Below, one piece after another: positions 8,619 to 54,000 of a stretch of 64,000 nt of DNA. The position numbers and the translations under genes are program-made. The DNA comes from Psammoneis japonica (lineage: Eukaryota), in NCBI GenBank assembly GCA_008632985.1, contig QPGO01000090.1, positions 186,001 through 250,000 on the forward strand, read 5' to 3'. Every line of letters begins with the position of its first letter. Position 1 is the stretch's first letter. The notes under the pieces were generated by a model. That model saw only the letters and a list, made by a program, of their open reading frames with translations. It made no database searches and was not told where the DNA came from.

Positions 8619-11249
8619 CGTCAGTAGTTCTTCTGGAGAGAGTTTCCCTCTTCAGATGCCAGCCGTGACTGAGATCTACCTTTCGATTCAGAGAGACGGA
8701 ATGGCAACAACAAGCATCGCCTGCCACCTGCCATCGCCTCATGTCAACCTCGAGAGGGATCTCGCTCGACCTCTCGGACAAAAACACGTCACTTACCGCG
8801 TGCATCTCGCGCTTCTTTACTTTTAACGTTTGCATCCGGGCACAACCATTGGCTGACCGGCTGACCACTCATTCGATAACTTGTGCTTGGGTCTGATTTG
8901 TTTCCAGAATTCTCACTCAGGTGGCTCTTCTCTGATTTAGAGGCAACACTTCCTGGAACACTTGGCCATGAAACAACAACGCTGTTGTCGTGCGCTTTTG
9001 CTGTGCTCAAGAGCCCTGGCATGTGGGGCTCTTGCACCCCAGAGAAATTGGCTGCCTTTGACATGCTGCAAAAGCCAGTCATCAGAGTGCAAACATCTCC
9101 ACACTTGTGAGTCATGAGCAATGCATGTGAAGTGTTTTGCAGTGCTGCCACAGGTGTGCCCAAGATGCTGTGAAGCGTGGACAACTCTCGGAGAGGAGCG
9201 GAGAGAGAGAGAGAGCACACTTTTGCTCTCTTTCATGTGGCTGTGTTGTTGCCACATCTTTTGCTGGGACCCAAATGTGTTTGGTGTGGCACACTCATGT
9301 CTCTGCTTAGCAGGTTGCAAGGTTGCTTGCTGCAGAAAGTTTTTGAGGTGAGCCTGCTCCTCCTGTGCAATTTCTGACCCTTGCTGAACTCAAGAATGAT
9401 GAACTTGACGAGGTGCACACTGGAGAACAAATCTTGCTGGTGACTGCAGGTCATCTTAAACCCTTGTCAAACCCCACATTTGTCAAGATGCTCAAGGGCA
9501 GTTCAATGAGCACACCAAATGATGGCACGGCTCAACTGGCTCTCAGCCCAGCAACACTGGAGCACCTGCTCCTGCGCAGCCAAACTGCAAGCCATCTTTG
9601 CTGGTTGGTGCCAAATCTGAATCAGCTCATGTCTTGCATCATCCAGAGCAAGCACAAACAATTTTTCATCTCATGCCAGGCCCTGGTGCACTGCTCACAC
9701 CAAACAAAACTTCGTCCAAGCCAATCTGGAGCAAGCTGTGGCCAAACATCCACTCATTCTTGGACAACAGCAAATTGTGCATTGAGTTTCTTGCACGTCA
9801 CCCTCACAACACACAGCTCAATGCTCTGAGTCAATGACATTAGAAGGAACATCATGAGCTCAGTGGAATTTGTCCTTCTCACAACAATTTCCATCTGCTC
9901 AAACCATCTCCTGACAAACAAAGCTGCTGCACTCATGAAAAGAGTTCAACTGTCTTCTCACAATGGGTCCACACAAATCATCTGGGCATGTTTCTCCATG
10001 AGCAGTGAGCACCTCCATTTTGTGGGAAAACCATCAAACAATTGAGTGGGTGGGTGTGTTTCAATGATCATGTCTCTGCCGCAAACCCTGTCATCCAAAA
10101 ACAAACCCTCAGTGCCTTGCCCCCTCATTCAGCATGGACTTGGCACAAATTTTGCAAATGCAGAATTAGCACCAAGTCTGTGCCATTTTGCTCAGATTGC
10201 GTTTCCCGACAAAGAGAGCAAGTGAAACAAATTCCTTGCATGTGAAAAGGGGGGCAAGGCACTGACAGTTTGTTTGGTGATGACACCAGTGTTTGCAGCA
10301 GAGATGTGACAATCAAAACATGTCCATCCACCAGATCATTTGATGGTTTTTTCCCACAAAATGGAGGTGCTCACTGCTTGTGGCCAGCCCAATTTTGCAA
10401 CAACCAAGAGCAGACAAACACACGTGACCAAGTCCCTGTGTCACATTGTGGCATCATCTCATTGCCCCATCTGACAAATGTGAGAATGAACCTGCAGCCA
10501 AAAATCTCTCCCATCTTTTTTTCTCTCATCACATTGGTGCTCAGTTTCACACGCTGCTTGCTGAGACCCAATTGCCAAGGCTTGCTTGTCTGCTCTCCTG
10601 ACCAGCGAGTGTGCGAGTGCAGCACACCACACAGCCACTTTGCTGCCAAAGCACTTCAACCACCCTCTGACCACTTGACAGTCTTCATTTTTATCTTGAA
10701 CCATCCAGTCCTGTGAGAGCTTAGATTTTGAGCTTTTCAAAATCCTCAATGTTCAAAGTTGAGATTCCACCGAAAGCAGCACACCTTGCGGCCCAAAAGC
10801 AGCAGGTGCCACAACATTTTTTTTGCACCCAAACCCTTCAGGTTTTTGCAACCATGCTTTTTTTCCTGTCTGGTCCTTCTCTTCTAATCCCCATGTGCTC
10901 TGTCAGCTTTTCATTGTGATCTTGTCAAAGGCACACCTCTGGCTTTTGGCATCTTTCCTGGGTGGCTCAAAAGTGGAGCTCTCCTTGTCTGAGCTGACAT
11001 TGTCGACCATGAGCCCAAGAAACCACAAGTCGCACGGGCCGTCAATGGTGAGTTCACTGTCGCGGATTCTCCATGTGGGTTTGTCCCATTCTGTTGCTTG
11101 TTGGTTCCAATCGCTGCAGCTGGTGCAGAATTCCGACAGAGACAGCCAAACTGCCGAAGAAAAGGTGGGAAGAAAGCATTCCACAACTGCGCCCACTTGC
11201 TCACGCACACAACACTTCTTCAGCTCTGGCGCTGCTCATCATCGGCGTC

Positions 11250-11700
11250 AAAATGAACAGCATCATGGACGACGTTTCTGCACCATGGATTCCGCGCGAT
11301 TCCTGTGAAGAGAAGAGGCAACGACTCGCAGAGCAGCATGAGGAGGAGGATGGAGGAAACCGCTTTGTTTGATTGTTGCGAGAAGTGTGACTTACATTGC
11401 AACACGTGTGGCTGTCGATTCGAGTTGCTGCGAGAATCATTCGTCGAGGAGATTGAAGAGAACTGGGGAGCAACAATTTTGCACCCCGATGGTGGGAACA
11501 ACGGAGGGCATGTCGCTGCATCCACTGTTCGGAAAGCGCTGCATGGAGCACACTCGAGAATCTCACGTGGGCGTCTTGGAAGGGGCGTCAGGTGCGAGCC
11601 TCCTGCTTGCATCGCGAACGGATTGCGCGAGCTGCTGCCGAATCCAAAAGGAAAGGATTTTGTTGGATGTCATGCTTCTTGGTCGCCAAATGTAAACATT
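11250..11700 (+). pseudogene. Degenerate ORF with P2X7 C-terminal (ballast)-like Cys/Zn domain, probably transposon-associated
   Basis: DCCEKCDLHCNTCGC...RKALHGAHSRISRGRLGRGVRCEPPACIANGLRELLPNPKGKDFVGCH resembles the remembered consensus R..AY..F.....G.LG.G.R...P.C....IR..FP.P.G.Y.GF, with Tyr positions read as His/Cys. Confidence 0.5.
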
Positions 11701-11895
11701 GGCACCACATCATGATTTTGTGAACAAGTGAGTCTTGTGTTTTGCGCATGACATGCAATGCAAATGTGCAAGCATTTGTGTGTAAATGCGATGTTTGCAG
11801 GACTGGCAAGTCACTGACAAAGAATTCCTGATTCCCATGATTTTTGCTGAAAATGCATGCAAAAACGATTTTCACAATTTTCGTCTTGCACCACC

Positions 11896-12293
11896 TTAAA
11901 TGTCACAAAGGGCGTGACAAAAATGACCTTTTGTCTGCATGCATGCTGCATTGTGAATTCACAGCAGAGTGGTTCATCGCAACCATTGGGCAGGAGGCCA
12001 GGGGTTCGAAACCCTGAGTGGGAGTTGTCTGCAGCAACGTTGATCACTGTCGAACGCACAAAACTCTGTGCAGTTCTGTGTGTTCCTTCGTGCGCACCCA
12101 CACTGTTCCGCCAAAACCGTGCAGTGTCAGCACACGTTGGCAAAAAGCCGTGTGAACTCGCGACACATGGGGGAGGAGTGCAACACACAGCTGCTGATGA
12201 CGAGAGTCAGTGTGTCACGGCGACGTGTTGCAGCCTTTAAATGTCACAAAGGGCGTGACAAAAATAACCTTTTGTCTGCATGCATGCTGCATT
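11896..12293 (+). repeat. 57-bp direct repeat pair (11896-11952 and 12237-12293), each with an internal TGTCAC-N7-GTGACA hairpin
   Basis: ttaaatgtcacaaagggcgtgacaaaaat[g/a]accttttgtctgcatgcatgctgcatt occurs twice; the single difference is TG vs TA. Confidence 0.9.
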
Positions 12294-13266
12294 TGCACTG
12301 TACGCCTGAGATCAGATAGCAGTCAAGTCCATTCTTGCAAAAGTTTTGAGAAGACAACAGTTTTGGTGCAAAAACATGTAGATTCTACGTACGTCCTCGA
12401 GAAAATTTTGGGTTTTACGTCACGGGTCATTTTCGAAAGATTCCCATTGATTCATTTTTGTCATGGTCCTGAAATTTGTCCACAAGTTAAAGACAGACAT
12501 AATTACTAAAGAGAATCTTAAGAGCCATGACAAAATAAACCATCGAAAAATGAATAACTTGCACAGCATCTTCCTGAGAACACGTCGTGCGTGCGTCATG
12601 CTGCAAGGCACTGTAGGTGATGATACACTATGATTGGTGTCAAATCATGATGTTGACATACAGTACATACTGTACCTATGCGCGCTTACTGTAAAAGAAA
12701 ACCTCTTGGCAGTCGAGAGACTTATTGACAAAATTGTCGTTTAAATAAACTTGCTGATGTACGTTATGTAGCCCCGCGCAATGGTTGGTTTCGGTTGTCA
12801 TTGACTGCTCATTTTGTGTGAGTCCAGCTAACAAAGCAACCTAAACCTGCAGCCAAGGCAATGTACAATTAATTTTGGAGTCCAGCCTCCAGCCTCCCCA
12901 AATCATAATAAAACAACAACTGAGGAGTAGGACACTTACTGTGCCATACTCTCCAACATTTGTTGCGAGGTGAAATGAATCCATGATCATTGACACATCA
13001 CCACGGCCCAACAGCAGGGAGAACATTTTGTTGTCAGTTGTCGAGAAATGATTTCTTCTCACAATTTCCGCTGAAGGACAACTTCTTGGGCGGATTCACT
13101 CGACAACTTTGGAGTCTTCCAACACTGGAGGACACATTCTTGAAAGACAACCCACTTCAACTTTCTCCATGTGCGCAGGTGCCATCCCTTGATTGGCATC
13201 CCATGTGTCGCTCTTCTGACCCTTTGCTCTTCCTCCGCCGCACTGTTTTGCTAGCCCTCTACTCCC

Positions 13267-14642
13267 ATGACGATCAAATTGATTGGACGGCTTTTCCAAG
13301 CAGCAGTGTGCTCATTGTTCTTGATTTGTCCATCGGCACAAGGTCAGAGGCTCCGTCCGGGCCCTTTGTCTGCTCTTGGTGGCACCCCGGGTGAACGCAA
13401 GTTGAGTGACAATGGATCTCCAGATGTGACACTGGAGTGGAATTCCGTTGCTCTTGAAATGAACGCCCTCGACCACGCGGGTCCAGCGGGTCCAGCGGGA
13501 GACAGCAGCGACACGCAAGGCCCTCCTGCCTCCGCACGAGCACTGGCCATGGTGCACACTGCCATGTTTGACGCTTGCAACGCAGTGGATCGTCGCCACA
13601 CGCCCCACTTGTACCAAGAAACCGATTCTGGCGCCTCTGTCGAAGCTGCCGTTGCCCAGGCTGCCCATGACGTCCTCCAGCTCTCGTTCCTGACTTCGCA
13701 CCACTGCACGCCGATGCTCTTGCGACGACACTCAATCGCGTCGATGATGACGACGAGAGTGGTGACGACGATAAAAGGAAGGAACGAGGAATCCTGTTGG
13801 GCAAAGGGGCTGCATTGGCCATTCTACAGAAACGAATGGAGGAACAAGACTTTAAATGGTTTAACAGCGCAAACATCTCATGCACCCCCACTGGTGTGAT
13901 TTTAAATCATGATGTCGATCCGGTGAATCCAGACCAAGGATTTGATGGTCCCGGTTTTGGGAACATGTCTGCCTTTGGCATCCAAAGCGCCGATGCGCAC
14001 ATGGCCCCGGAGCCACCCACGGCTGACACTGGTGATCATGCTTTTGCATTTGATGAAGTCAAAGAGTTGGGAATCTTTCGCGGTGGTACGACAGGCTCAA
14101 CCGCCCCAACTGATGACCCTGCGTACGTAACTGCGAATTGTTGGAGTTACAATGGAAGCCCCAAGACTGGCACACCTCCACGCTTGTACAACCAAATTGC
14201 GCGTACGATTGCCATCGATCAACGGAACGAAGTTCACGAGAATGCAAGGTTGCTCGCACTTGTCAACATTGCCATGGCGGATGCTGGTGTCACTGCATGG
14301 AAAACCAAGTGTGAACACAATTGTTGGCGTCCAATTTTGGGCATTCGACTTGCAGCCACCGATGGGAATAATGACACCGATGCGGTGACAGATTGGGAAC
14401 CGCTCGGGGGTTCTCGCAGCAATCCAGTCGTTAAATTCCCAGGCGAGAAAAACTTCTCGCCTCCCTTTCCAGCCTACACGAGCGGTCATGCCTGCTTTGG
14501 TGCGGCAATGTTCAAGACGCTTGCCAACTTTTATCAGAGGGATGACATCACTTTCAAGTTTGTTTCGGACGAATGGAATGGTGAGACGCTTGACGTGTTT
14601 GAAAGGGTCCGTCCCTTTATTGAACGAGAACACACTTCTCTT
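13267..14642 (+). pseudogene. Vanadium-dependent haloperoxidase (PAP2 superfamily, bacterial-type), 5' part; disrupted by a frameshift (~13678) and a copia insertion
   Basis: Signal peptide; WNSVAL..GPPASARALAMVHTAMFDA; ARLLALVNIAMADAGVTAWKTK(C)E(H)N(C)WRP; PPFPAYTSGHA; intronless. Confidence 0.88.
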
Positions 14643-14989
14643 TGTGACAACATTCACACTTGCATGTTTTTACAACAACATCGGACCTCCACGATTCAAA
14701 TCAGAGATCCAAGATTCGAACCCCGTGTGCGATGCTCAGTCTCGAATCCCGCGGAAGCCGAGTCACGAATGCGATGTTTGTTCCTAGCTTCGCGCTTGTT
14801 TAACTTCGCGTTTCCTTTAGATGGCAGCTGCATCTGCTCATAAAAACTGCTCATAATCTTTCTAACGCACTGATTATCACCTCTCAACTTTTGGTACAAT
14901 AAAGTTGCTGATTGATTGTTGTGTCGCAATTACAGCTTTTAATCACTGAAAGTGCAGACGAATCACAGAATTCCGGCTACTTTCCCACA
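14643..14989 (+). repeat. 5' LTR
   Basis: Direct repeat of 20873-21219 with 5 substitutions in 347 bp by hand alignment. Confidence 0.97.
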
Positions 14990-15063
14990 CGCTTCCTCTG
15001 CGAAATCTACAAGTTAAGTCAATCGATCTTAAGCTCTCGATTCTACTTTACTTTGCTGTTACT

Positions 15064-16569
15064 ATGGTCACGCAGACACGAACCGCGGCTGCTCTAGCTG
15101 CCTCTGTTGTAGCTCCCGCTGCAGCACCCGCTGCAGCTCCTACCACTGCTGCTGCTCCGGCAACAGCACCTGCTCCTGCAGCCGCTCCAGTTGCTCCTGC
15201 ACCTCCCCCAGTCGTTCCTCCCGGTGTACCTCCAGGAGGAGGTGGCGGAGGAGGTGGAGGAGGAGGCGGAGGTGGAGTCCCACCAGGTGGAGTCCCGCCA
15301 GGTGGACCACCATTGGCACCTCTGCCACCACTGCCGATCTTCGCGTTGACTCCAGGTCAACACCGTCCCAACATCTTCATCGACTACGGCACATCGCAAG
15401 GCCTCAAACTTTGGAACGCCGCTGCTGCACCGCTGCCGCACGAGTTCAACGGCGATTCAGAAGGTCTCAAACGGTTTTGTGAGACACTCAGTCAACGAGC
15501 TGCCGAGGCAGGATGGAAAACAGGGGCAGGAGACATACTTGCCATTCCCGACGCGAATGGAACTCCACGAGATCTCATCTCCGAGTACGGATTACTCACT
15601 CTACAGGATGTTAGAACCCACGCGAACACCTTCGCGAATCTACCTACGCGACAAGCACAGAACAATGTGCAGATGGCCGAGGCGATCTCTCAATCCCTTA
15701 CAGAAGAAGCAAGAGACAAGACATTGGCTGAGATAGATTCCTATACGATCAATGGAAATCAAATCGGCACACTGTTCTTCAAGCTACTTACGCAAAAGGC
15801 CATCGTTGACACACGCTCTACCACCAACTACTTCCGCGAGAACTTGTCAAGCCTGGATACGTACATGGCGGCTGTCAACTCGGACATCGAAGAGTTCAAC
15901 AAGTGCGCCAAGCTCAACGTTGACGGACTCCAAGCTAGAGGAGAGCAGTGCGACGACCTTATCATGAACCTATTCAAAGGATACGCCGCAGCTGCTGACG
16001 AAGCATTCGTCAAGTACATCATGTTACACAAGGACAGGTACGACGACGGTGAGGAATTCACGCCGACGCAAATCATGACGTTGGCACTGAACAAATGTGC
16101 TAACCTCAAGCGCGAGAAGAAGTGGGGAGCACTGTCACCGGCTGAAGAGCAAATCGTCGCGCTTACAGCCAAGGTAGACTCCATCAAGGATCAGAACCTT
16201 CAGCTATCTAAAGCTTTGAAGGCCAAGGCTGGTTCAACCAAGGAAAGAAGCACACGGTCAAGGAAGACCAAGACCACTCCACGTCAGAGACAGAAAGCGG
16301 ACGAAGCCTGGAAGAAAGTCCCGCCTAAGGAGGACGCTCCTAAGAAGACAGTGAACGGTCATCAGTGCTATCACAAGCGCGTCAACAATCGCGACTATCA
16401 CTGGTGCCCATATCACACTGCTTGGGTCATACACTTACCTGATGATCCGGGCAACCAAGGCTGTAGACTCCGCAAGCAACAGTCTGCTCCATCCACAGAC
16501 ACGTCGGACAAGAAAGTCTCCTTCGCAAGTGCTATCTCCACCATCCTAAATGAAGTGGATCAAGAGTGA
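15064..16569 (+). CDS. gag: Gag protein of the copia element
   Basis: 501-aa ORF directly after the 5' LTR; Ala/Pro/Gly-rich N-terminus, basic C-terminus, Cys/His cluster WCPYH..WVIH...GC. Confidence 0.85.
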   Translation: MVTQTRTAAALAASVVAPAAAPAAAPTTAAAPATAPAPAAAPVAPAPPPVVPPGVPPGGGGGGGGGGGGGGVPPGGVPPGGPPLAPLPPLPIFALTPGQHRPNIFIDYGTSQGLKLWNAAAAPLPHEFNGDSEGLKRFCETLSQRAAEAGWKTGAGDILAIPDANGTPRDLISEYGLLTLQDVRTHANTFANLPTRQAQNNVQMAEAISQSLTEEARDKTLAEIDSYTINGNQIGTLFFKLLTQKAIVDTRSTTNYFRENLSSLDTYMAAVNSDIEEFNKCAKLNVDGLQARGEQCDDLIMNLFKGYAAAADEAFVKYIMLHKDRYDDGEEFTPTQIMTLALNKCANLKREKKWGALSPAEEQIVALTAKVDSIKDQNLQLSKALKAKAGSTKERSTRSRKTKTTPRQRQKADEAWKKVPPKEDAPKKTVNGHQCYHKRVNNRDYHWCPYHTAWVIHLPDDPGNQGCRLRKQQSAPSTDTSDKKVSFASAISTILNEVDQE

Positions 16570-19500
16570 CTGCTCTACAGGTTCACTCTGACACTGCTGC
16601 TGTCCTTGCAGATAGCCGTCACTGTGTCAGTGCTCCTCATAGCGGTCGCTGGCGTCATGAAATGTGCAGCATCGATCTGGATCATACTACTGTTCATGAT
16701 GCTGTCCCTTCCTTCAGAAAAGTGTAAGCGCCTGTCACATGCCGTAATGACGCTGGGTGAGTGGGTCATCTCACATATCCTGGCTGAACTGGGCACAAGA
16801 CGAGTTAAGACTTACCAGCGACGGCCAACGACGAGGTACTGCGCACGGTATCATACGTCGACGAGGCCAGGTCACCGCTCCAGAGTGGCCACCAAGAAGG
16901 CTCACTATGTCATTACACGATACAAGACGGTTAGAGCGTACAACTCAACCACACCATACCGTCCCGAGCGAACGGAGCCCACTTACGATTCGGACTCATT
17001 CGTAATCGGTGTCGACTCGCATTCTTCCTGCACCATGTCCAACGACGAGGCACACTTCATTGGTCCTCTTCGCAAATCCAACAAAGTGGTACTCGGTGTC
17101 AAGGGCTGCTTACGTGCTAAGGGAGAAGGAACAGTGCAGTGGGAAATTGAGGACGACATGGGACGAGTGCACAGCATCAAAATTCGAGACGCGCTACTCG
17201 TGCCGGACTTACCTCATTGTCTTCTCTGCCCGCAGCAATGGAGCCAGCAAGCTAATGACCACACGCCAGAGCCTCACGGAACCGTATCTTGGACTAGGGA
17301 CGACGGACTATTACTGATGTGGGATCAACGCAAGTATCATCGCCTGATTCCATGGTCCGCCAACTCTAACGTCGCCAAGATGCGCTCCGCACCCGGTTCC
17401 AACAAATACCGGACCTTTGCAGCCGCTGTCGAAGAACAAACCGATATCGAAACTATCGAGCACGTGGCCTATCAAGCTCACATCATACCACCAGACGACG
17501 AGAGTATTGCGAATGATGACGAGGCTGCAATTGATACAGACGTCTTCAGAAGTCCATCCGAGACACGTCCTTCCGAGACGCAAGACGCACGCAACACCAC
17601 TGATGAGGATGCTCCTGTCTTATTTGAGCCAACAGACGGAGCAAGTCGTTCAGACTCAGACGAGGAAAACCTAAGGGATTTCACGACACCGGAGGTACAG
17701 CAGGACTTACCGGAACCCATCAACATCATACCAAATGATGACGCCCTTGCTGCCACAGATGACCAGGGTGAACTATTGCGTTGGCATTACCGCCTGGGCC
17801 ACATGTCATTCAAAATGATAAAGCTATTGGCCGCCCTAGGCATTCTACCAAAACGCCTTACAAAGGTACACAACCCAAAATGTGCCGGCTGCCTGTACGG
17901 TGCCATGACGAAACGACCATGGCGCTCCAAGTCCAAGCGGAACCGACGAATCCACTTGGCAACTTCGCCTGGAGAAGCCGTATCCGTCGACCAGCTCGAG
18001 AGTCCTACTCCTGGATTGATCCCACAGCTCAAAGGGAGACCTACGAAACAAAGGTATCGAGCAGCGACAATTTTTGTTGATCATTTCAGCGGATTGGGAT
18101 ACATTTATCTGCAGAAAGGACTTACCTCAGCCGAGACGCTCGAAGCCAAGCACGCTTTCGAGGCATTTGCACGCCGGATGCACGTCCGTATTCAACACTA
18201 TCACACCGACAATGGAAGATTCGCTGATAATGCTTTCATACAAGACGTCAGGAAGCAACAGCAAACAATATCCTATTGTGGGGTCAACGCCCACTTCCAA
18301 AACGGCATCGCGGAGAAAAGAATAAGGGACCTCCAAGAGCAATCTCGGAAGCAACTCCTGCATGCAAAAGTGAGATGGCCAACGGCTATTGAGTTGAACT
18401 TATGGCCAAGCGCTCTCAGGAACTCAAACGAGATCAAGAATCACTTACCGAATCACGAGGACGGTTCTTCTCCGCTGGAACGTTTCTCGTCCGTCAAGGT
18501 CCAGCCTAATCTCAAACAACACCATACCTTCGGCTGCCCCGTCTACGCCTTGCACAACCGGTTGCAGGGAGGAGGTAGGCTGCCTAAGTGGGACCCAAGG
18601 GCAAGGTTAGGAATCAATTTGGGACCATCAACAAGACACGCAGGTTCAGTTACCTTGGTTTTGAATTTGCAGACCGGACTCGTATCGCCGCAATTTCACG
18701 TACAATTTGACGACTTCTTTGAGACTGTTCGTCCATCTGCTGGGAATCCTCCTACATTCTCACAATGGCAAGGCATTACAGGTTTCAGACAACTCAAGAC
18801 AAGGAGTACTTTCAACATCTTTGGGAAATCAAGTGACGTACCGGTTGAGGGATCAGTCCCTACCACAACGGAACCACCTGAGCCGAATTCGGATGTCCCG
18901 TCTCAGCTGCTGCATCCTACTGATACGTCTACCACTGATGACTCATTTGATAATGCCCAACCGGATGATGAAATGCTATACACGCCTCCAGATGATTCTG
19001 ACGCACCATCTGAGCCACAGCGCACTATGGGTCAACCCAGTACCAGTAGGTCCGGCCGACAACGACGCCCGACCGAAAGGATGCGCGAGAGCCAACTACA
19101 ACGGGCTCAAGGCATTGTCTCCTACAATGCAGAGGCAGAGGCATATTATGATGCGATGCACGAGGATGATTACAAACTGCAGGACGACATGGACTCACCT
19201 ATCTCTTTTCTGGCCAGCTCGGACCCCGACACCATGTACTTTGATCAGGCTATGCGTGAACCTGACAGAGACGAGTTTATCAAAGCCTGTGTTAAGGAGG
19301 TCAATGATCATATTGAAAGGAAACATTGGATACTCATTCCAAGAGAGGACGTACCTGACGATGTTGATGTTCTCCCTTCGGTATGGTCTATGAAGCGCAA
19401 AAGAGATATTAAGACCCAAGCCGTCTACAAATGGAAGTCCCGACTTAATGTGCACGGCGGAAAGCAAGAGTATGCTGTCAACTACTTCCAGACCTACTCT

Positions 19501-20829: not shown

Positions 20830-20872
20830 GACGTTTTCGAGTCATCATTCCACCCGACATTGTTGAAGGGAG

Positions 20873-21219
20873 TGTGACAATATTCATATTTGCATGTTTT
20901 TACAACAACATCGGACCTCCACGATTCAAATCAGAGATCCAAGATTCGAACCCCGTGTGCGATGCTCAGTCTCGAATCCCGCGGAAGCCGAGTCACGAAT
21001 GCGATGTTTGTTCCTAGCTTCGCGCTTGTTTAACTTCGCGTTTCCTTTAGATGGCAGCTGCATCTGCTCATAAAAACTGCTCATAATCTTTCTAACGCAC
21101 TGATTATCACCTCTCAACTTTTGGTACAATAAAGTTACTGATTGATTGTTGTGTCGCAATTGCAGCTTTTAATCACTGAAAGTGCAGACGAATCACAGAA
21201 TTCCGGCTACTTTCCCACA
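20873..21219 (+). repeat. 3' LTR
   Basis: Preceded by polypurine tract, followed by TSD CTCTT. Confidence 0.97.
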
Positions 21220-21224
21220 CTCTT

Positions 21225-41630: not shown

Positions 41631-41861
41631 TTAGTCTGAACCCGCAGATAAGGCAAAACGTGTATTGCTTCACCGCAGTGGTCATCGCTGATAGCATTCT
41701 TCAATAACAGGTGGATGATCGAGGTATTGCAAAGAGCAATACGAGTTGGGTCCCAGCAGCCGGCAGGGTATGCATGGCGTTGCTTGATTTTCGAACTAAC
41801 TTCTTGTCTTAACTTCTACCTTACTTGATACTTTTCCCAACTGTGTTCATGCTAAAAAATT

Positions 41862-44800: not shown

Positions 44801-45740
44801 AACCGGTCGCAAAACAGCTCTCTACAAAATTCTCATATCCAGCTTCAGTGCCAATCAAGCCACCTCCCACTCCACTGCCAGACACATTAATGTCACTACG
44901 AGCATAGCTGTTTGATATTGCTTCATATTCCAGGTTGCCAACCAGACCACCGGCACTCTTGCAACCAGTAACGCTGCATGCAGCATAGCTGTTGTTGAGT
45001 TTTTCGCCATGTAGCGAGCCAATCAAGCCACCGCACTTCTTTGCTTCGTTCCCATTGACCTTGACATATTCTGCACTGCATTCGTCAATGAAGCTGCCGA
45101 AGGATGTTCCGATAAGTCCACCGACATCCGACTTTCCAGTAACCATTCCACCGCGGACGTGGCATGCCGTAATTCGAGGCTGAGTGCCGATCCGTTCCCC
45201 GCTGCTTGCATCACCCACAAGTCCGCCGACAGAGCCCTTCAAGGCTTCAACTTGGGGGTTTTCAACCACGATATTATGGATTCTAGGCCGGAGGTTGGTA
45301 TCATGACCCCACGTTGTGCCGACAAGTGCGCCGACACCAGATCGGCCTCTCACACGTGGGTTCTTGAGAATCAAGTTGCGGATTTGCGCATTGTCAAAGA
45401 CGCTCCCGAAAAGTGCCATATTACTATTGCTGCTATAATCAATATTCAGATCACTTATGGAATGACCGTTTCCCTCAAAAAGTCCTCTGAAAGAGCGAAT
45501 AGGGAAAAAGTTATCTCCTGCGGCGACTTTGATGTCATTCATCAAAATGTAGTTCTTTGTTAAGGATTCGCCGGAAAGACTTTTCAGATCTGTGTATGTG
45601 TGTATCTCGCAGGGACTAGTGGATTCTGTCCCACAGTCCTCGGTGAATTTCGCCATTGCGCGTAGCATCATGCGGCTGCTCATCAACAACCAGCATGCTC
45701 TAACAATGCTGCGCACTCCACGGTAAGTCATGCTGGTCAC
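41862..45740 (-). CDS. Large intronless GLUG-motif/beta-helical surface protein with two duplicated modules and Cys-containing GGPY repeats
   Basis: 1292 aa; FxEDCGTE..PC...TY.DL...YIL.NDI...F.G.F.GNG..I.DL.I occurs twice; many VGGLVG repeats; about 4 units of GGPY..W.VD..KC.F.D...P.LTC. Confidence 0.8.
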   Translation of the reverse strand: MTSMTYRGVRSIVRACWLLMSSRMMLRAMAKFTEDCGTESTSPCEIHTYTDLKSLSGESLTKNYILMNDIKVAAGDNFFPIRSFRGLFEGNGHSISDLNIDYSSNSNMALFGSVFDNAQIRNLILKNPRVRGRSGVGALVGTTWGHDTNLRPRIHNIVVENPQVEALKGSVGGLVGDASSGERIGTQPRITACHVRGGMVTGKSDVGGLIGTSFGSFIDECSAEYVKVNGNEAKKCGGLIGSLHGEKLNNSYAACSVTGCKSAGGLVGNLEYEAISNSYARSDINVSGSGVGGGLIGTEAGYENFVESCFATGSLRRADEAKVGGLIGTRVPSRPLVLKENYCTLHPAIGNSKTENDQVEVVPDPEYFQDGDNKPMSGWDDGKWVFPENSYPSLQSFPKNVAGGPYFGKPDAPLHLSESLSLDEANYQWTVDSDKCAFSDAKSVHPMLTCSGTEVETSNIKACVKVSATHVDMFEDCRRVDLTTRSLNKPIPLDGVSIYGASYLWTIDSDICVFSDEKAVAPVLTCSGMDKMSGASVFACRRASFANSTIFRDCTNVAIVTSHKPVVSAGGPYNGNEGAEIPLDQATSTASDIYWSVDNDKCAFVDAQVLHPILTCRDISSVAGIISVGVCVTSSYDDQTVEDCTTVAIRFEDDCGTEGNKPCKVSTYEDLQSISKSGLDKSYILTNDIQAPSNHNFVPIGELYVNEFTGTFDGNGFAIRDLFIKYEGEGFGQGLFGSISVNAEIRNLVLDKPNVTGTYDVGALVGHCSGQSTSIHNVVINSPTVRGISAVGGAVGKAYQTEIRNVFIRRPTVSALSFVGAVMGNADETGLSCCHATGGRVSGLFDNERDYFGRIGGLVGGFGSGRMEECSANDVMVSSGKEGDYFGGLVGSLTASDISNCFATGSVKGKNAGGLVGEAFHRYSIRNSFSRGDVNSNGSAGGGLIGKQGYGAVEGNFATGSVTGGADRKVGGLVGFRDGQVGSFRTNFCTMNPSIGNSPGGNSGVKIIDEDKMPGRMKKLWDNDVWTFRGSEFPDLECFPELQLGGPYSGSQDVPIHLNKVTAFEGARFRWTVDNGKCSFNDNEALNPVLTCHGIAGTAAKVKVCAKVRGPDKTIFRDCTTVSFDTNKREPFPGNFKDVTCAYSACVAKVSGLYGAGFNSNGDDKAIFLKSKRQALSSKTLIKKNRRLSKSLSSLKEALRLNEELRETAPEFSNNVGRLASSCAITLLEDAISAYRGKGILDEAFLGNVLDTNLGVAKANRKAKKWKNSVGRCQVAIYKMLEMLNKVKVPLC

Positions 45741-46299
45741 TTGTTCGAATGTATCGTGTTATCTACTGCGTCAAACTAATCTCTACAGAGAAAAAATGAA
45801 TCAATTGCAAGAGAAAAGAGAGCAGGATAAGATATCTAAGGCATAAAAACACCGTGGAAAGAACAAACGGATTCGACACGGAATTCCGAGATCTTTACGA
45901 CAGCACCGAACGCCACAAACAAAGTGACACGTACGATGCTTCCAACATGAGATAGAGTATCTGTTTCTCTTAACGGCACCACGGATCCAGGATCATCGGT
46001 AAAGCAGCAGCAACCTGTGGTACTCACATCTTTTCAGGGCTGTTCATTCGGCTCTTTGCCTCTATCTCGCTTCGTGTTACAATCTTTGTGTGTGTGAAAA
46101 AAATCCAAAATGTTGAGGTCGGTCTTTTTTGTCACAGGGGCAGTATCAATCCGCGACACGAGATCCGCGAACCATCAAACATTTAACGAAATCTTCAATA
46201 AGTACCTGCAGTGTTGTGTTGATGGATGACTTATTGGTCATTTCTTCATAAATGACAGTACATACAGTAATGGTTATTTTACTTTACCTTGGATGCGGA

Positions 46300-49200
46300 T
46301 GAGATGACTGGAACTGTGTGAGCTCGAAGGGGCGGCAATGCGCGAATTCCGGTTCGTCACTAATGCAACTGGTTCCCATTCGCTCGAGAAGTCCGCAAAG
46401 CAGGTTGTGTTCTTCGTTGTTTTCGAGAGTCAACAAATTTACATTTGACAGCATGGGAGACCACCTGGCGCACCTGACAATCTTGTTGCTGCCATGTGTT
46501 GTGTCCTTAAACACCAGCAAAGCGTGCCAAGATTCAACAGAGTTTTTCTGACAATTGCCAAAGAAACAATGCTCTGTTCTGGCAAATGTTTTTTCAGCAG
46601 CACAGCACTCAAGAGCCCAAATTACCAGCACTCAGAATGCTCAAAGTTGAGCATCATCATGCCATCTGTGCATGCCAGCACCAGCCAGCCACAATCTCCT
46701 GGGACACTTCTTTGCAGAAGCTTGTGTGCCGCTGACAGCCAGAACCGCTGACAGTCAGAAGATGCACCAGCCATTTTGTCTTCTGTGTGACATCATTTTC
46801 TTTTGGGCACATTGGTCACAGAAAAAGAAAGCACAGAGCTGCATGGCACAAAAGTTTGGCACCACCCACACAATGTGGTCTTTGGCATGCTGCGCTGGCA
46901 ATGCCTTTGAGAAGCACATCCCAACACAGCAAAAGAGCCATTGTTTCCTCACCAACAATGAAAAACTGTTGAGTCTTTGGCACTCGGCAGCACTGGCAAC
47001 ATTTTTGAAAAGCACGGCCATGCACAGCTCATTTTTTCAGGCCTGGAGCTGTGCAGGTTTTTTGTGCACTGGCTGTCTTTCAACAACTCCGCCAGCAGCT
47101 GGTCAAAAGCAATTTTTTTCTTGCACATCTCTCTCAAGCTTCTGATTGAGACCCCCCCTGTTCACACACACACTCTCTCTCTCTCTGCTTTTTGTCAGTC
47201 AGCTGGTGTCAGAGCACAGACACGGTGTGAGCAGCAAGCCAAAGAGCACTTGGCAAACCAGAGACAGTGGAGGATGACACTTGTGCCAGTGAGAAAAAGT
47301 GAGAGAAGATCTCAGAGAGATCAACTCATCCATCTAAAAAGCATCTGGCTGAACATCATGCATGCACAGTCTGACTTTGTACAGAGGAGTCAGCTGACAC
47401 CCTCTCCTGATCTGGCATGTCCAACATGGATGATGCAGATCATAGACAGAACAAAAAAGGGAAGGCAACAATCAACCAAATGAAGTGCAAAGCAAACCAG
47501 ATGACTCTTGCAGGAGTCAGACATGACAAAACAACAAAGAGCAATTCTGCAGATGCCAAGAAAAGGCAGAACAGCAACTCAACAGAAGCAACCCATCATC
47601 CCATGGGCATGGCAGGCACAGAGCATTGGCGATCCAAGGAGAGTCTTGGCAAGGTCATTGCTTGGGCCATCAGTGCCAGGAACAAATCAAGAGACAATGA
47701 AACTGGCCTCCTTCCAGTCTTGAAGGGCGAGCCACTGGGGGCACCAATGTGATGAGAGCACTTGGCTGGGATCCGCCAGTCATTGGCAGTCTTGATGACA
47801 GACTCGTTGTTGGCGTGCAAAGGGGCATGGAGCTCTCCTGAAAAAATCCATGTTCATTGAGGACAGAGCAAAGATGCAGGACTTGTTTGGCAGTGGTGCC
47901 AGTGGTGGCACAAAACTCAGCTTCAGCTGAGCTCTTGGCAGTCACTGTCTGTGTCTTGCAAAGATGCAAGAGACAGCAGCACCAGCCAACACACACACAT
48001 GCCCAGCAGTGAAGCAGTGATTGCAAAGATCATTTTCACATGCAGCATCCAAGAAAGTAGGAAGTCATGTGAGAGAGCCAGGAAAGAGGAACTGGGGCAA
48101 GGATTTGTCTGACTCAAGTTGCTCAAAAGGATGCAATGGTGAAGTGGGGTCCTTGGAGTGCTTCTTGCAGTTGATGTTCCAATGCTTTGTGCAACAAAGA
48201 TGCTTGGCAACACCTTCCAATGCTGTGCAATGTGCTGGTGGTGCTGGGGCAGATGCAAACTTTGACAATGTTGTGATGGCATGCCAACAGTTCACCAAGT
48301 GAGTTGTGGCATCCAAAGCCCTGTGCTTTTGCAAGTTTGGCATGGTTGGCTGGGGGTGCCTTCCACAGGAAAAACACCAGAGTGCAACTTGGAGACAAAA
48401 TCAACGGGAGGAAAAGTGGCTGGAGTCCAGCTCATCTGCAGCAGGTTTCAACCAGCCATGCAATTCAGAACATGATCAATGCACCAACCATGACAAGCAA
48501 TGGATTTGGAATCATCACACTGGTGGACATCCACACCATTGAACTCTGCACAGAGGCCCAAATGCTTGAAAGGCATGTCATCCTTGCCAGAGAGCCACAG
48601 TGACTCAACAATTGAATAAAAAATCTTGATGGCTGATGACTCCTCTGGGCAAGCCATTGAGAAATCATTGACCTGTCCAAGGAGGAGGATGCATTTGCCC
48701 TCAAAGGTCACAGCACAAATGCACTTTTGTCATGAGCAGCCAGTGTTCTGAAATGGGAGCTTGCATCTGCCCAAATCATGTTGATGTGAATGTGATTCTT
48801 CTCCCGCAGAACACCTGACTTGAGGTGTTCCTGCAGGGTGTGGAGGATTGGCAGCATTGTGTGGAACAATCCAAGTCATTGCATGGGCTTTGTCCATGTC
48901 AACAAAAACAAGGGTTGAGGGACACAGAGAGTGGGCACACGCATCCTGAGCATTGCCAGAGCAGATTGGCAGCTCATGGAAGCTGACAGAGCAAAAAACA
49001 ACCATTGAATGAATTTTTTCACACATGAAGAATGTGCGAACTGTGGGCAATGCAAAGCAGGAGCAGCTCTGGGAGATCCATCACAACAGTGTCAAGAATG
49101 ACACACACTGTCTGTCTTGACATTGCATTGCCAACGGGGATGCAGGACAACATCACCTGGAGGACAGGGGATTGGTGCACCCCAAACATTCCAAGTGCGC

Positions 49201-52200
49201 AAAAATGACCAAATTGCTTGAACTTGCCTTCATGCCAAAGGGGCCAAGTTGAGAGTGGGTGCTTCTGAGGAAAGCAGCCGCCATCCAACTTTTGTTCCTC
49301 AGGGGTTGCTGAATGAGAAGAAAGGGCAAAAATTTTGAAGGCACCGGCATCATGGTCAATTGTGGGGAGCAACTCCAAATCAACATCATCCAAAGTCCAA
49401 GAAATTAACTTCAGGAAACCACAGTGCTGCAACTGATCACACATCTGCCAATGCAAGCTCAAGAACATGCTCTTCTTCTTCTGCCAGAGGTGGAGAAAAA
49501 ATGTCATGTTCTGCCAAGGCACATTGGAGCTGTTTAGAGTTGAGAATTGTTGGTGTGGCATTCCAGAGCAAAAACAATTTCAAAGTCTGGGTTGTCAGCA
49601 TCACAGAGATGGCAGACCTTGGCAATGACTGTTCATGAGTGAGTGGATCAATGCCATCAATCAATGTGACATGGGCTCCCATGATCTTGTTCTGAGCAGC
49701 CTTGAGTGAGGAGAACAGGTGGGGCTTGGAGAGCTGCCACACTTTGTGCCAGAGAGATGGCACAAGCAGTTGAACAGTGAACAGTTCATTGACAGAGTGT
49801 GATGTCTGCATGCTGAACATTTCATCCAATGGGGAGCATTTCACATGACATGCAAGAGTCTTGGAGAAAGGATTGCCAAAAAAGCGGAACTGGTCCACAA
49901 CAGACTGCATCATTTCAGCCTCAAACGGCTCACAATTCTGAGTGCATTGCAAATCCATGACATTTGGCAGTGTGTCATCACATGGGAGGGCATTCATGCC
50001 TTTGTCAAAGCAAACATGATTGTCAATTTTGACATGGAACTGATGTTCTTGGCAGCATCAGGGGGAGGCAACTGAGAAAAATTCCTTCAACAGAGTTGGA
50101 GCACACAGCAATGTGTGAAGTGCCCAAGAAATCTCTTTCTTTCCTTCAGCAAGAGGAACAGGAGCAACATCTTGACCCTTGGAAGGGAAAGCATTCTTGT
50201 TGATGTGGGTGTGGTGATGGAAAGCATGTGACCAAATTTTGGCAGGCAAATTTGCTCTGATGAGCATGGCACAAATGGCGCTCTGCACACCGTCAAGTGA
50301 CTGCACTCTGAACAGGGTCATTTTGATTGGAGGCATCAGCTCCAGACATCTGAATCTTGCACTGAAAATCATGTTCAAAAAGTCTTTGGACTGCATGGGT
50401 TCAGAGCACAATTTGCCACCTTGGCCCATGAGTGCACATTTGTTGCGACATTTTGATGAGTGCTCATCCAAGAATTGGCAAATTCATGTGATTAGAGTGG
50501 CCTCAGAAATGCAAGTGGCACCATGGAGATGTTGGGTGTGATGATCACAGACAGTCATCCAACAAGTCTTGCCATTGAGACCCGCGCAGTCTGCCACATG
50601 GAGGTTCTTGTTCTTGGGCTTCAAACCAGAGAAAGTGAACAAGATCATGGTTGGGCCTTGATGTGGTTGAGTGGTGGTGCAAGCAGAGTTGAACAGGCCA
50701 GGTTCTTGGCTTGCTTCATTTGAATGCAAGCAGGGCAGGAATCTGAAGGAGAAGCACCGCGAGCAAGCTTGGAACACCATCAAAACACTTGTGAGCATTG
50801 CACAAGCAGTGGTCACTCAGGAGGTGGGCAAGACAATGGTGCCAGAGCAGGCTTTCAGTGTCAGCTTTGAGGGCCTGCATGGGAATCTGTTTCTCAAGGT
50901 GAGACTCAAAAGGGACATCTTGATGGCAGCACAGGATCAACTTCATTTCATCATTGAGCATCTTCTTCTGGTGGTGTTGCTTGCAGAGGTGTCAATCATG
51001 TCATGTGCAATGACTGCGTTGCACTCTTCAGCAAAGGTGGGGTCATTGTCCTTGATTTTGTGGATTGACTCATCAAGTGTCTTGCCTGAGTGTGGGAGCA
51101 TCAAGGGGTGGGCACAACATTTTCCATCAATTGACTGACCATGGATGATCACATCTTGATTGGAGCATGGAGTTGATGTTTCATGACATGCTTGCGGGTG
51201 CCATGATCATGAACTTGGGGCAGGCAATTGGCTGCAAAATCTTTCTTGTGACCACCATTGCAAGCTGTGGGTGACACCAAGTGCACATGGCAACATTTCC
51301 TGCTGATGCTGTTTCCCACTGGAACACAGACATCTGCGGCAATGGGGAGTGGCACCTTTCTCACTGAGAGCTGGGTTGACCTTGAGGGGACATGGGTTGG
51401 AGGGTGCAAATGGTCAGCGTCAATGGAACAGGTCCATGTTGCCAGCACAGGAGACACAGAGGTGCAAGCATTGAACTGAGCACAATTTTCATCTGCCCCA
51501 GACTGTGCCACACTCACCTTGAAAGCCTCATGTTCAGCATCAAACATGGCAGATGGAGACACCCAAGATGATTTGTTGGCAGAGATCCAAGCAGAGTTGA
51601 TGGCAACAAAACCAGCTTCATCAAAATCATCTGAGCATTGCTTTGAGGTCAAAAGGTTCCCCCTCCCCCCCCCGATCTTGACTCCTCCCCTCCTGATTGA
51701 CAGCATGTGCCAACAGATCATTGTCAGGGAGAGTTGTGACACACCAGGCATCATCAGAGAGATGGCAAGATGGGTGGTGTCTACAACAGCTTTCTCAGCC
51801 ACCCTGCTGTCATGTGCATCATCTCAGAGAGGAGAAAACAGGCGGCATTGGAGATCCAAAACTGCCTGCAATGGCCCAACTGAAAATCTGGTGGCAGAGA
51901 ATCAGCAGGTGGATGAACTTGTTCATTCTGTCAAGCAAGCAAGTTTCCTTGGGTGCCAGCAAAGGTGACTGCATGTTGTTGAGCAGCTTTTCACATCAAA
52001 AACTGGCAGAAGCAAGTGTGAAATCTCTTGACACAGGAGCTGTCCTTGAGGATGGGACAATCTTTGAAAAGATGGTCACCAGCACACACCAAGCACGGGA
52101 ATTTGGCAGCCTTGTTGGGAGCAACCTTGAGTTTGAACACCAACACCAATGGCATTGAGTGCAACACAAAAGGTGATCATTGTCAGCCACAGGAATGTTG

Positions 52201-54000
52201 AGAGAGTGCAACTCATCACAAAGACTGTCAAAGGCATCATCATGCAGAACCACCAGCACATTGTCACATGCAAACATGTCATCAGATGCAGCATCCAGGG
52301 GAAGATCTTGAACAACAGCTGGTGGCTCTGCACCATCAAAAGCATTGGTGCCAACAGGATTGCAAGGCAAAGTGTTGTCACAACACTTGTGTTGGCAACA
52401 AGGGGTCTGGACCCAGTTCAAAGAGGCACCCATGTGGGCTGGACTGTCCGCTTGGCTCAAAAACATGCTGAGCATCTCAACATTTGTCTGCTGCTTCTGC
52501 CTCAGTGTGCTTGCACAAGTGAGCTGCTGAGGTGCACTCATTTTTGGCAACTCTCGTTGGGAACTTTGAGCACTTGGTGTTCTTGAAAAAAAAGTCATCT
52601 CGTGGGGGTGCTTTTCATGCAGCATGGTTGTTGTTCAGCGCGTCTGTCAAATCAGAGATGTCAAGAGAACCTGAAGCAGTGGACAATGCTGGAGGAGTCT
52701 TGGAAGCACAAACAAGAGGGCACTTGCAGCATCAGAAAAGTTGGCACAATCCCTGAATGAGTGCTGCACAGCAGGGATGAAGGAGAGATGCAAGATGCCA
52801 ACAGCAACAATCACCTTGGAGTGATCAGGCTGAAGAGGGTCCTCCATTTTGTGGCCCAGAATCATTTGTCAGGACAGAGGATGATCCACTTGGTCAGAAG
52901 ATGCAGGATCAGCAACCTCCTTGAGGGGCACCTTTTGGTGCAACCAGTGGTGAGTTGGCAGGCTCAAAGGTTTCTGGGAGGACAAGCTCTGAAAGGGCAC
53001 ATGCTTCTGAGTCAGATCAATCATGTTTTGTTCTTGGCCTTCGTGTGCTTTGGATCATCAAAAAATCAATCCCCAGATCAATGATCATGGTGCTGCCATG
53101 AATGCTGCTGAAGTGTTTGGTGACTTCATGGCTTTGTGCATGTTGTGCAAAGGCAACAGAAATCTCTTCAATGGTGTCAAAAAGTGCTTCTTGGGGGTCA
53201 AATGTGACATCATGGTTGACGAGGTGTGCAAAACTCATGAGCACCTGGTGTGGTGTGCTGCTCCATCATTGGGCCTGTGCGCCAATGAAGAAATCACTTC
53301 CAGGATCAAAAATGGGGGCAAGCTTGTCCAGCTCACAAACCAAGTGAACCACAGTGGGGCCCACAGCCCATCAGAGAGAGTGCCTTTGTGGCGCACATGG
53401 GCAGTGAGACACAAAAGCCAAAGGAGCCCCCCTTGCAAACCAGCAGCGGCAGAGTGGATGACATGTGCGCTTGAAAGAGTGAGAGAGGAAGCTCTCAGAG
53501 AGATCAACTTGTCCATTTGCAAAGCATCTGGCTGTCTCCAAGCACACTCTGACCTTGTGCAGAGTCAGCTGACACCAGCACCACCACACAAAACTGGGGC
53601 CCTCGCATGGACGAATTCAAAAGAGCCTGCAGCCACGTGCACAAAAGAAGAGCATGACACAATGTCCCCAGGTGTGCACCAAGTGGCTGGCAAGCCCGAA
53701 CATGACATGTTGCAGCGCACGGTGATGGGTGGAACGCGACCCCCAAAAGCAAAAGGAATCAACACCTCCTGCTGGTGAGCCCGGCGGGGCGGGGTGCAGA
53801 TTGACTCTGTCTGTCCGTGGACACTGTACAGAGATGGCAACCGAGCACGTCATGCGTGCAGGGTGCGTGCGATGCGTCGCGCGTCGCGGGCGTCCGGGTG
53901 TCGGCGGCCATGACGGTGAAAAGCCAACGTGCTGACAACGAGATCGCTGCATCTGTTCGTTTTGTCCCAACTGCATTTCATTTGTCCATCAAGGCCTCTC
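46300..54000. other. Island 3: TpA-depleted domain (core also CpG-depleted) containing the decayed copia and flanking degenerate DNA
   Basis: Hand count for 52021-52320: 0 TA and 1 CG in 300 bp; the edges keep CG but lack TA. Confidence 0.8.
47207..53574 (-). mobile_element. Old, heavily mutated Ty1/copia LTR retrotransposon
   Basis: Diverged ~200-bp LTRs (about 47207-47399 and 53369-53574), both starting TGTCAGCTGAC on the minus strand; PPT GGAGAGGG at 47400-47407; relics LWHHCLAHL (IN zinc finger), ANLPAKIWSHAFHH (IN), LLGQVNDF and FNGVDVHQ (RT), KTQTVTAKSSAEAEF (RNase H) in copia order; TSD not found. Confidence 0.85.

Follow-up and report, generated by a model that had tools for sequence, protein, structure and literature searches.

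Local erasure of TpA and CpG dinucleotides in a diatom genome: probable hypermutation of silenced, mostly transposon-derived DNA

What process could remove nearly every TA dinucleotide from parts of a diatom genome and leave the neighboring DNA intact? The question is raised by a 64-kb window (the whole stretch analyzed here, from contig QPGO01000090.1) of the pennate diatom Psammoneis japonica. An earlier interpretation, made from the letters of this DNA (the sequence-only reading), proposed three islands in which a repeat-targeted process converts TpA to TpG or CpA, and knew of no such genome-defence pathway described in diatoms. We consider it probable that two local mutational processes have acted here on silenced, mostly transposon-derived DNA: conversion of TpA to TpG or CpA, and decay of CpG. 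Literature searches on TpA and CpG depletion, transposons and deamination in diatoms returned no report of TpA hypermutation, in agreement with that statement. Outside diatoms a precedent exists: hypermutation confined to TpA was reported in 2026 in the alga Bigelowiella natans (Mettrop et al., bioRxiv 10.64898/2026.01.13.699255).

Observed/expected (o/e) ratios of dinucleotides were calculated in 500-bp windows, and domain borders were placed to ~100 bp by listing every TA and CG position. TA o/e is 0–0.10 and CG o/e 0.03–0.20 in 9001–11000, 22001–25500 and 46501–53500, where TG and CA o/e reach 1.5–2.3. In the rest of the window, TA o/e is ~0.4–0.9 and CG o/e ~0.7–1.4. Three full blocks (depleted in both TA and CG; 13,217 bp in total) contain 30 TA and 94 CG, compared with ~515 and ~745 expected from the flanking density. 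There are 26 TA-free gaps of at least 180 bp in the window, 25 of them inside islands (the exception is at 2322–2503), and the longest extends for 2045 bp, from 51782 to 53827. A count made by hand for the sequence-only reading (no TA and one CG in 52021–52320) is correct, with the CG at 52096. The depletion of the three islands was also correctly recognized, but their layout is more composite and their borders are sharper than described, with full blocks, zones that lack only TA, an insert and a young copia element (Table 1). The CG-poor zone of block 1 has a sharp end at 11004, and TA density is normal again from 54012.

The missing dinucleotides reappear as TG and CA. Background densities per kb are 39.0 for TA, 56.4 for CG and 144.0 for TG+CA; the corresponding values in the full blocks are 2.5, 7.3 and 229.9 (differences of -36.5, -49.1 and +85.9). 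The sum of all four is 239.4 per kb in the background and 239.7 in the full blocks. AA (81.9 in the blocks vs. 79.8 per kb in the background), TT (77.4 vs. 77.6) and AT (59.5 vs. 62.2) are barely changed, which indicates that A and T are affected in TpA only. TG and CA increase about equally in every block (TG share 0.46–0.53), and this ratio near 1:1 indicates that both strands are hit. The GC content is 0.478 in the background, 0.518 in the TA-only zones and 0.480 in the full blocks. The rise in the TA-only zones is of the size expected if ~30 A:T pairs per kb became G:C, and the full blocks are almost unchanged because the gain from TA is cancelled by the loss from CG. We conclude that the islands are the product of conversion rather than of original composition, and that the direction is TA to TG or CA and CG to TG or CA. 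Repeat-induced point mutation (RIP) of fungi is recognized by C-to-T changes at CpA and an excess of TpA. The 2.5 TA and 229.9 TG+CA per kb of the blocks have the opposite polarity, as do the codons of the transposon relic described below, in agreement with the sequence-only reading.

We give almost no credence to an intrinsic composition, in which foreign or viral DNA arrived with avoidance of TA and CG, or was selected for it. Many viruses under-represent CpG and UpA. However, TA is emptied in all 16 flanking contexts, the full blocks retain just 1.4–3.4 TA per kb, the losses and gains of dinucleotides balance exactly against the background, and a TA-normal copy of a repeat from block 2 is present in the same window. 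For block 3 this explanation is refuted by a non-functional, frameshifted relic in which tyrosine and arginine have become cysteine, histidine, glutamine and tryptophan.

This relic was identified through an open reading frame (ORF) at 50061–50483 (minus strand), which has 20 relatives in an exhaustive database search (best E 2.9e-10). In Pfam searches, these relatives are copia polyproteins in which the matched stretch comes after gag_pre-integrs and before SH3_retrovirus, followed by RVT_2. A profile of the relic lineage was built from the relatives of the ORF, excluding the window's own row, and 11 minus-strand reading frames match it colinearly (E 3e-27 to 3e-3), with several frameshifts. 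The matches cover profile positions 177 through 1413, between 51206 and 47673 in descending order, and include the integrase, reverse transcriptase and RNase H region of pol. Block 3 is thus a Ty1/copia element, located on the minus strand, that has decayed and acquired frameshifts; its pol relic is at 47673–51206.

The codons of the relic give the direction of change. At 28 positions where the consensus is tyrosine, the relic has cysteine at 10, histidine at 8, phenylalanine at 5, other residues at 5 and tyrosine at 0. At 42 consensus-arginine positions, arginine is found once, cysteine 9 times, histidine 6 times, glutamine 4 times and tryptophan once (20 for the four replacements together). 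Other profile positions are retained in 309 of 716 cases. The young copia element of the window, compared with the same profile as a control, retains 9 of 28 tyrosines and has no cysteine or histidine in their place; it retains 11 of 40 arginines (5 replaced by cysteine, tryptophan, histidine or glutamine) and 146 of 469 other positions. Replacement of tyrosine by cysteine or histidine thus differs strongly between relic and control (18/28 vs. 0/28; Fisher p = 1.2e-7). The replacements are the products of TAY to TGY or CAY and of CGN to TGN or CAN. The earlier claim of a TA to TG/CA direction, on both strands and in local domains, is therefore borne out by mass balance and relic codons, and also by differences between long terminal repeats (LTRs) and between read sets (see below).

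The relic is from a copia lineage other than that of the young element, and it was found only by exhaustive search. With gag and pol of the young element as tblastn queries, we found no island match below E 0.1, and BLASTP of the ORF at 50061–50483 against the young pol gave no match. A profile from 70 relatives of the young element produced only weak island matches (best E 0.039). Weak LTR-like direct repeats are present at 47253–47351 and 53435–53534, aligned over only ~100 bp. This pair, and a second at 8918–9084 and 25536–25701, were considered as LTRs and rejected, as the alignments (~100–170 bp) are too weak.

Table 1. Domains and features of the depleted region (window coordinates; densities per kb in parentheses).
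Feature	Position	Strand	Length (bp)	TA	CG	Other
Block 1, TA and CG depleted	8940–11003		2064	7	20	TG 218, CA 245
TA-only zone, CpG normal	11004–12237		1234	4 (3.2/kb)	68 (55/kb)	GC 0.511
TA-normal, AT-richer insert with high-copy repeat	12238–12947			39 (55/kb)		GC 0.407
TA-only zone, partial; 5' part of haloperoxidase-like gene	12948–14642	+	1695	19 (11/kb)	100 (59/kb)	
Young intact Ty1/copia element	14643–21219	+		39.8/kb	57.5/kb	Both normal
3' end of haloperoxidase-like gene (to ~21428) and spacer	21220–21834	+		Mildly reduced		
Block 2, TA and CG depleted	21835–25907		4073	13	27	TG 467, CA 470
Block 3, TA and CG depleted; decayed Ty1/copia	46524–53603	-	7080	10	47	
TA-only zone, right flank of block 3	53604–54011		408	1	32	GC 0.578

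DNA without TA has a consequence for annotation. Neither TAA nor TAG can occur in it, so TGA is the one stop codon left, and spurious ORFs of 150–250 amino acids are present in several frames of 46300–54000. Software for gene prediction will probably report false proteins without tyrosine in such DNA, and annotators should be aware of this.

Loss of CpG can be separated from loss of TpA. The sequence-only reading noted that deamination of 5-methylcytosine explains the change of CpG but not the loss of TpA. The TA-only zones (24 TA vs. 200 CG in 3,337 bp) show that CpG loss in the blocks is a further process that can be separated from the TA signature and does not belong to it. Every CG-poor block in the window is also TA-poor, the TA-poor domain extends further, and there is no CG-only zone. 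This nesting fits a faster or wider TpA process. Evidence for separation was also obtained from other copia copies. Among 70 aligned relatives of the young pol (of 120 listed database relatives), P0257 has cysteine or histidine in 17 of 25 tyrosine columns, P0251 in 16 of 29 and P0300 in 11 of 29. These proteins retain arginine in 27 of 36, 34 of 38 and 29 of 39 columns, and 84%, 91% and 81% of other conserved positions, respectively. The young pol of the window has 1 such replacement in 29 columns, with arginine retained in 34 of 38 and other conserved positions in 90%; the remaining 67 of the 70 relatives have at most 2. Two of the three proteins thus retain other positions to a degree on a par with intact copies (81% and 91% vs. 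90%), in line with the sparing of A and T outside TpA. Similar replacements occur in two relatives of the relic lineage, P0365 (5/5) and P0368 (4/5). All five proteins come from further public assemblies (in NCBI, ENA and the representative library), which may include the species of the window, and are TpA-only hypermutated copies. The reverse case, loss of CG with ordinary TA, was seen in 6 of 48 metagenome copia loci (L022, L023, L029, L032, L035 and L040; CG o/e 0.11–0.29, TA o/e 0.50–0.85), and none of the 48 has a TA o/e below 0.50. Together, these copies show that loss of CpG and erasure of TpA take place independently.

A single coupled machinery directed to heterochromatin (a deaminase of both A and C, or error-prone repair at methylated DNA) could remove TpA and CpG together, and we regard this as unlikely. 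All three CG-depleted blocks are TA-depleted, their left borders coincide within ~100 bp, and a CG-only zone is absent from the window. ADAT2 enzymes that deaminate A and C in DNA are cited in the B. natans preprint (10.64898/2026.01.13.699255). A coupled machinery does not explain why TA was lost without CG over 3,337 bp, why arginine is intact in three database copia proteins with replaced tyrosines, or why CG was lost without TA in the six metagenome loci. A fast TpA process combined with a slower decay of 5-methylcytosine would produce the nesting without coupling.

The TA-poor domain between blocks 1 and 2 includes a gene. We identified a haloperoxidase/PAP2-like gene by a Pfam match to VCPO_N (E 1.9e-7). 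Its homologues (40–52% identical, mostly planctomycete-like, one from the diatom Amphora) map by tblastn to 13417–13677, 13773–14642 and then 21219–21428, and the gene is split by insertion of the young copia element. Eight conserved tyrosine columns contain 4 tyrosines, 2 cysteines, 1 histidine and 1 valine. The sequence-only reading took both cysteines of the motif WKTKC..NCWRP for former tyrosines. The first is on a column that is tyrosine in 98% of 49 homologues, but the column of the second is phenylalanine in 80%. Beyond the element, 21220–21760 is nearly normal (14 TA, or 26 per kb, and 29 CG).

The young element is intact. Its LTRs (14643–14989 and 20873–21219; 347 bp) enclose gag (14950–16566) and pol (16570–20826), and a 5-bp target duplication, CTCTT, is found at 14638–14642 and 21220–21224. 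Domains gag_pre-integrs, RVT_2 and SH3_retrovirus were identified, with gag followed by pol and integrase before reverse transcriptase. The two LTRs differ at 5 of 347 positions, all by transitions. Four of the five mismatches are on TA bases, although only 32 of 347 positions are in a TA of either LTR (p = 3e-4). Both LTRs of an element are made from one template; thus, differences at TA indicate that the process acts after integration.

This finding bears on the possibility that the RNA or cDNA of retrotransposons was edited before integration, by an ADAR-like enzyme with a preference for a 5' U and an APOBEC-like enzyme that converts C to U. Block 3 is a retrotransposon, and ADARs favor U before the edited A (10.64898/2026.01.13.699255). 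In the transcriptome-like run X2, the young copia family has spliced antisense transcripts, which could form double-stranded RNA. Editing before integration is nonetheless highly improbable, given the TA differences between LTRs from one template. ADARs also edit A after A, and AA is not depleted. In addition, both strands are equally hit, depletion extends to a non-transposon gene and to flanks beyond the element, and the differences at the same locus between the window and a second source of reads, X1, are of the TA type.

The X2 transcripts have an unusual feature of their own. Contigs of this run skip at least 14 stretches of 70–113 nt within 15432–19738 of the young element. On the plus strand the skipped stretches run from CT to AC, the form of GT..AG introns antisense to the gag-pol frame, and 8 of the 14 end in the reverse complement of GTAAGT. 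There are 10 plus-strand occurrences of GTAAGT in the element, where fewer than one is expected. Apparently, this young copia family contains numerous well-formed introns in antisense orientation, and we know of no described case of such introns in a retrotransposon family. Most island bins have no X2 cover, from which we draw no conclusion on expression.

Read set X1 (single-copy depth ~57, read off in bins) addresses both the recency of the process and the reality of the islands. X1 includes 0.96 of the sampled 31-mers of 45001–55000, three quarters of which is island, and its contigs on blocks 1 and 2 have 0–12 differences each from the window (e.g., 4, 7, 12 and 4 for those at 8001–10030, 21220–22629, 22600–24158 and 24489–25327). 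Transitions account for 414 of the 472 kinds of change seen over all aligned X1 contigs. Islands differ from X1 at 34 of 7304 bases and flanking DNA at 2 of 1984 (p = 0.02). In 12.7–14.5 kb, 8 of the 9 best-supported differences are sites where the window has TG or CA and X1 has TA at full depth. At one of them, 13882, the window encodes cysteine (TGC) and X1 tyrosine (TAC), in a column that is tyrosine in 43 of 50 homologues. Among the 18 best-supported differences in the young element, which is multi-copy, the TA type accounts for 8 and the CG type for 4. With the LTR mismatches, the TA-type differences are signs of recent activity. X1 also includes a contig of single-copy depth that begins to match exactly at 21220 and whose 37 preceding letters are not on the LTR. 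It may represent an allele, or a strain, in which the copia element is not inserted.

X1 bears equally on a technical explanation, in which base-calling or polishing read modified TpA and CpG as TG and CA and the true sequence retains TA and CG. The sequence-only reading had noted that independent reads with TA at the island sites would favor such an artefact. The result is divided: X1 carries the islands, but at the 8 best-supported sites of 12.7–14.5 kb it has TA where the window has TG or CA, all in one direction. As X1 reads contain the TA-free sequence, both in the words of 45001–55000 and in the contigs on blocks 1 and 2, it is very improbable that most of the depletion is an artefact. 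Strand-wise miscalls would also produce a mixture of TA, CG, TG and CA rather than exact mass balance, and the tyrosine to cysteine/histidine pattern recurs in database proteins of other assemblies. Overall, the chance that the islands are a technical product is very small. Even if the 8 sites were miscalls, they would point to a TpA-directed modification.

For blocks 1 and 2 the nature of the target is less clear than for block 3. The X1 depth is 477 in bin 9903–10536 (block 1) and 532–9762 in bins 23851–25752 (block 2), which indicates that parts of these blocks are multi-copy. Depths of 61768 in bin 11805–12438 and 9762 in bin 25119–25752 indicate repeats of ~1000 and ~170 copies, respectively. 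One repeat occurs in two states: positions 12310–12449, in the TA-normal insert, are the reverse complement of 24292–24431 in block 2. Five of the 6 TA in the TA-normal copy read TG or CA in the island copy and one reads TC, and all 7 CG read TG or CA. There is one case in the reverse direction, and the two copies have no TA or CG in common. The insert is probably younger than the depletion around it.

Islands were also compared after recoding to purines and pyrimidines, using words and BLAST; E-values in two letters are inflated, so only top matches were used. This comparison recovered the two LTRs and some short repeats, and we found no long homology between islands. It also revealed a ~140-bp inverted repeat (9996–10131/10243–10383) and a 90-bp palindrome (24405–24494) in depleted blocks, which may be remnants of small inverted-repeat elements. 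Pfam searches of 110 island ORFs of at least 80 amino acids identified VCPO_N as the one match above cut-off, and scanning 20 ORFs under relaxed settings added no usable match. A database search with the ORF at 24597–25286 in block 2 was uninformative. We did not identify tandem repeats in the islands or Rfam families in the window.

With respect to targets, mobile DNA is represented by the copia relic in block 3, and blocks 1 and 2 contribute only partially raised depth. The proposal that repeats are targeted is supported to the extent that block 3 is a copia relic and parts of blocks 1 and 2 are multi-copy, but nothing that we found supports repetition as the trigger. Similarly, transposon and pseudogene domains as targets are consistent with the relic and the disrupted gene, but most of blocks 1 and 2 is without recognizable content.

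The remainder of the window is gene-dense, with long uninterrupted ORFs. An encoded Obg GTPase is 70–80% identical to proteins of Nitzschia, Seminavis, Fistulifera, Cylindrotheca and Pseudo-nitzschia, and 87–88% identical to others, which places the window in a pennate diatom and not in Bigelowiella. One TA-poor patch is located far from the islands: 2001–2500 has 4 TA (o/e 0.13) with normal CpG, and together with the 181-bp TA-free gap at 2322–2503 it falls in an ORF at 1188–2501 (minus strand), for which no Pfam family was identified. The patch (2001–2503) could be due to chance, codon usage or a small TA-only zone.

Several observations weigh against two local processes acting on silenced, mostly transposon-derived DNA. 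The complete lack of tyrosine in the relic is partly forced, as TA-free DNA cannot encode this amino acid, and the informative part is the set of replacements. In a test of context, the excess of NTGN and NCAN is not clearly correlated with the loss of NTAN and NCGN in the full blocks (r = -0.21); the same type of test in the TA-only zones gives a modest correlation (r = 0.60, p = 0.015). The lack of TA loss in 48 environmental copia loci implies that the process is not general among copia-carrying algae. Searches of blocks 1 and 2 with Pfam and the relic-lineage copia profile identified no recognizable coding content, and their origin is unproven. The X1 differences by type are from the best-supported 40 of 484 difference rows. 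All 8 differences in 12.7–14.5 kb have the same direction, with the window derived, which fits a burst in one lineage but also miscalls at modified TpA. Finally, the accuracy of X1 and its independence of platform are deduced from its depth of ~57 and contigs of up to 315 kb, and X1 may be the assembled sample itself.

Taking these points into account, we favor the following sequence of events for the two processes. A fast process would cause A:T to G:C transitions at TpA, on either strand of integrated DNA, until no TA is left. It would reach from a few hundred to ~3,600 bases (11004–14642) beyond the full blocks and into neighbors, including a gene. The depletion of the haloperoxidase-like gene and of the 408-bp right flank of block 3 would represent spill-over from silenced mobile DNA. 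The second process would be ordinary, slower decay of CpG to TpG or CpA, most simply by deamination of 5-methylcytosine, with methylation presumed. The layering suggests that the old blocks were formed first and that the TA-only zones arose later or were erased faster. The insert at 12238–12947 and the young copia element would be the last arrivals, the latter with its first few hits. The data show the pattern itself, its direction, its restriction to TpA, its symmetry between strands and its action after integration, with signs of recent activity. We infer that an enzyme drives the TpA process and that silenced or foreign chromatin is the target.

TpA is palindromic; thus, the sequence gives no choice between A and T as the attacked base. 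The simplest chemistry would be conversion of adenine to hypoxanthine by a polynucleotide deaminase. This is our leading guess, held with somewhat less than even confidence. Alternatively, a TET/JBP-type dioxygenase could act on thymine at TpA to form 5-hydroxymethyluracil or 5-formyluracil, which would pair with G and lead to T to C changes. Dinoflagellate DNA shows enrichment of 5-hydroxymethyluracil at TpA, and 5-formyluracil forms mispairs with G. Because TpA reads identically on both strands, a T to C change on one is indistinguishable from an A to G change on the other. We consider attack on thymine improbable, as the sole published candidate is an adenine deaminase, itself untested (10.64898/2026.01.13.699255).

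The proposed CpG process resembles known decay driven by 5-methylcytosine in the change of CG to TG or CA in the three full blocks and of arginine codons to cysteine, tryptophan, histidine or glutamine. Such decay leaves TpA untouched, and here it is slower or narrower than the TpA process. Ascomycete RIP is similar in that local, dinucleotide-specific transitions ruin transposons and leak into adjacent unique DNA. However, RIP changes CpA to TpA with an AT-rich outcome, whereas here TpA is destroyed and CpA and TpG are raised. ADAR (acting on double-stranded RNA) and APOBEC3 (acting on cDNA) also restrain mobile elements by transition hypermutation. They act before integration and on one strand, unlike the changes here, which are in integrated DNA, on both strands and also in a non-mobile gene.

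The known system that the TpA process most resembles is that of B. natans. In mutation-accumulation lines of this alga, two integrated viral regions mutate ~1000-fold faster than the remaining genome, and A>G or T>C changes, each at TpA, make up 230 of the 231 new mutations in these regions (10.64898/2026.01.13.699255). Hypermutation occurs in a subset of lines only, at ~1e-7 to 1e-6 per site per generation. The genome contains 124 clusters that are TpA-poor and rich in CpA+TpG, and TpA-poor coding sequences are enriched in transposase and reverse-transcriptase domains. An ADAT2-like deaminase was proposed but is untested (Mettrop et al., bioRxiv 10.64898/2026.01.13.699255). The text of the preprint, in the part available, has no mention of CpG, 5-methylcytosine, diatoms or retrotransposons.

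The two cases share the restriction to TpA, the change to TpG or CpA according to strand, discrete domains, and signs of recent, possibly episodic activity. The islands here pass the B. natans cluster thresholds (Rho TpA <= 0.43, Rho CpA+TpG >= 1.52). The hosts are distant: B. natans is a chlorarachniophyte (rhizarian), and P. japonica is a pennate diatom (stramenopile). The targets in B. natans are giant-virus or virophage inserts; here they comprise the copia relic, repeats without an assigned family and the split haloperoxidase-like gene. TA o/e is ~0.03 here, which is saturation, compared with 0.45 in a B. natans viral region, and the mutation rate is known from B. natans alone. CpG decay accompanies TpA loss here and is not mentioned for B. 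natans in the available text.

We regard the TpA process in P. japonica as one of the same kind as that in B. natans. TpA-directed DNA hypermutation was previously reported once, in one alga (the 2026 preprint), and the diatom case suggests that it is not a curiosity of one lineage. The diatom case adds saturated depletion, its extension into a host gene and a view of how CpG decay relates to it. Several stages are present side by side in 64 kb of DNA: a copia relic in which TA has been erased, a gene in which erasure is three-quarters complete, and a young element that has received its first hits. The case shows that the process is able to inactivate host genes that are located beside transposons. 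It is conceivable, though we think it rather doubtful, that diatoms carry an active RIP-like TpA-editing defence, homologous to the B. natans system and both old and widespread in algae of the SAR (stramenopile, alveolate and rhizarian) group. If true, comparison of the two lineages could reveal the shared machinery, which would be an adenine deaminase that acts on DNA, or a thymine oxidase, with silent chromatin or small RNA as its guide. Genetically manipulable diatom species exist, so the mechanism could become testable, and P. japonica provides, alongside B. natans, a second, distant genome in which to search for a shared enzyme.

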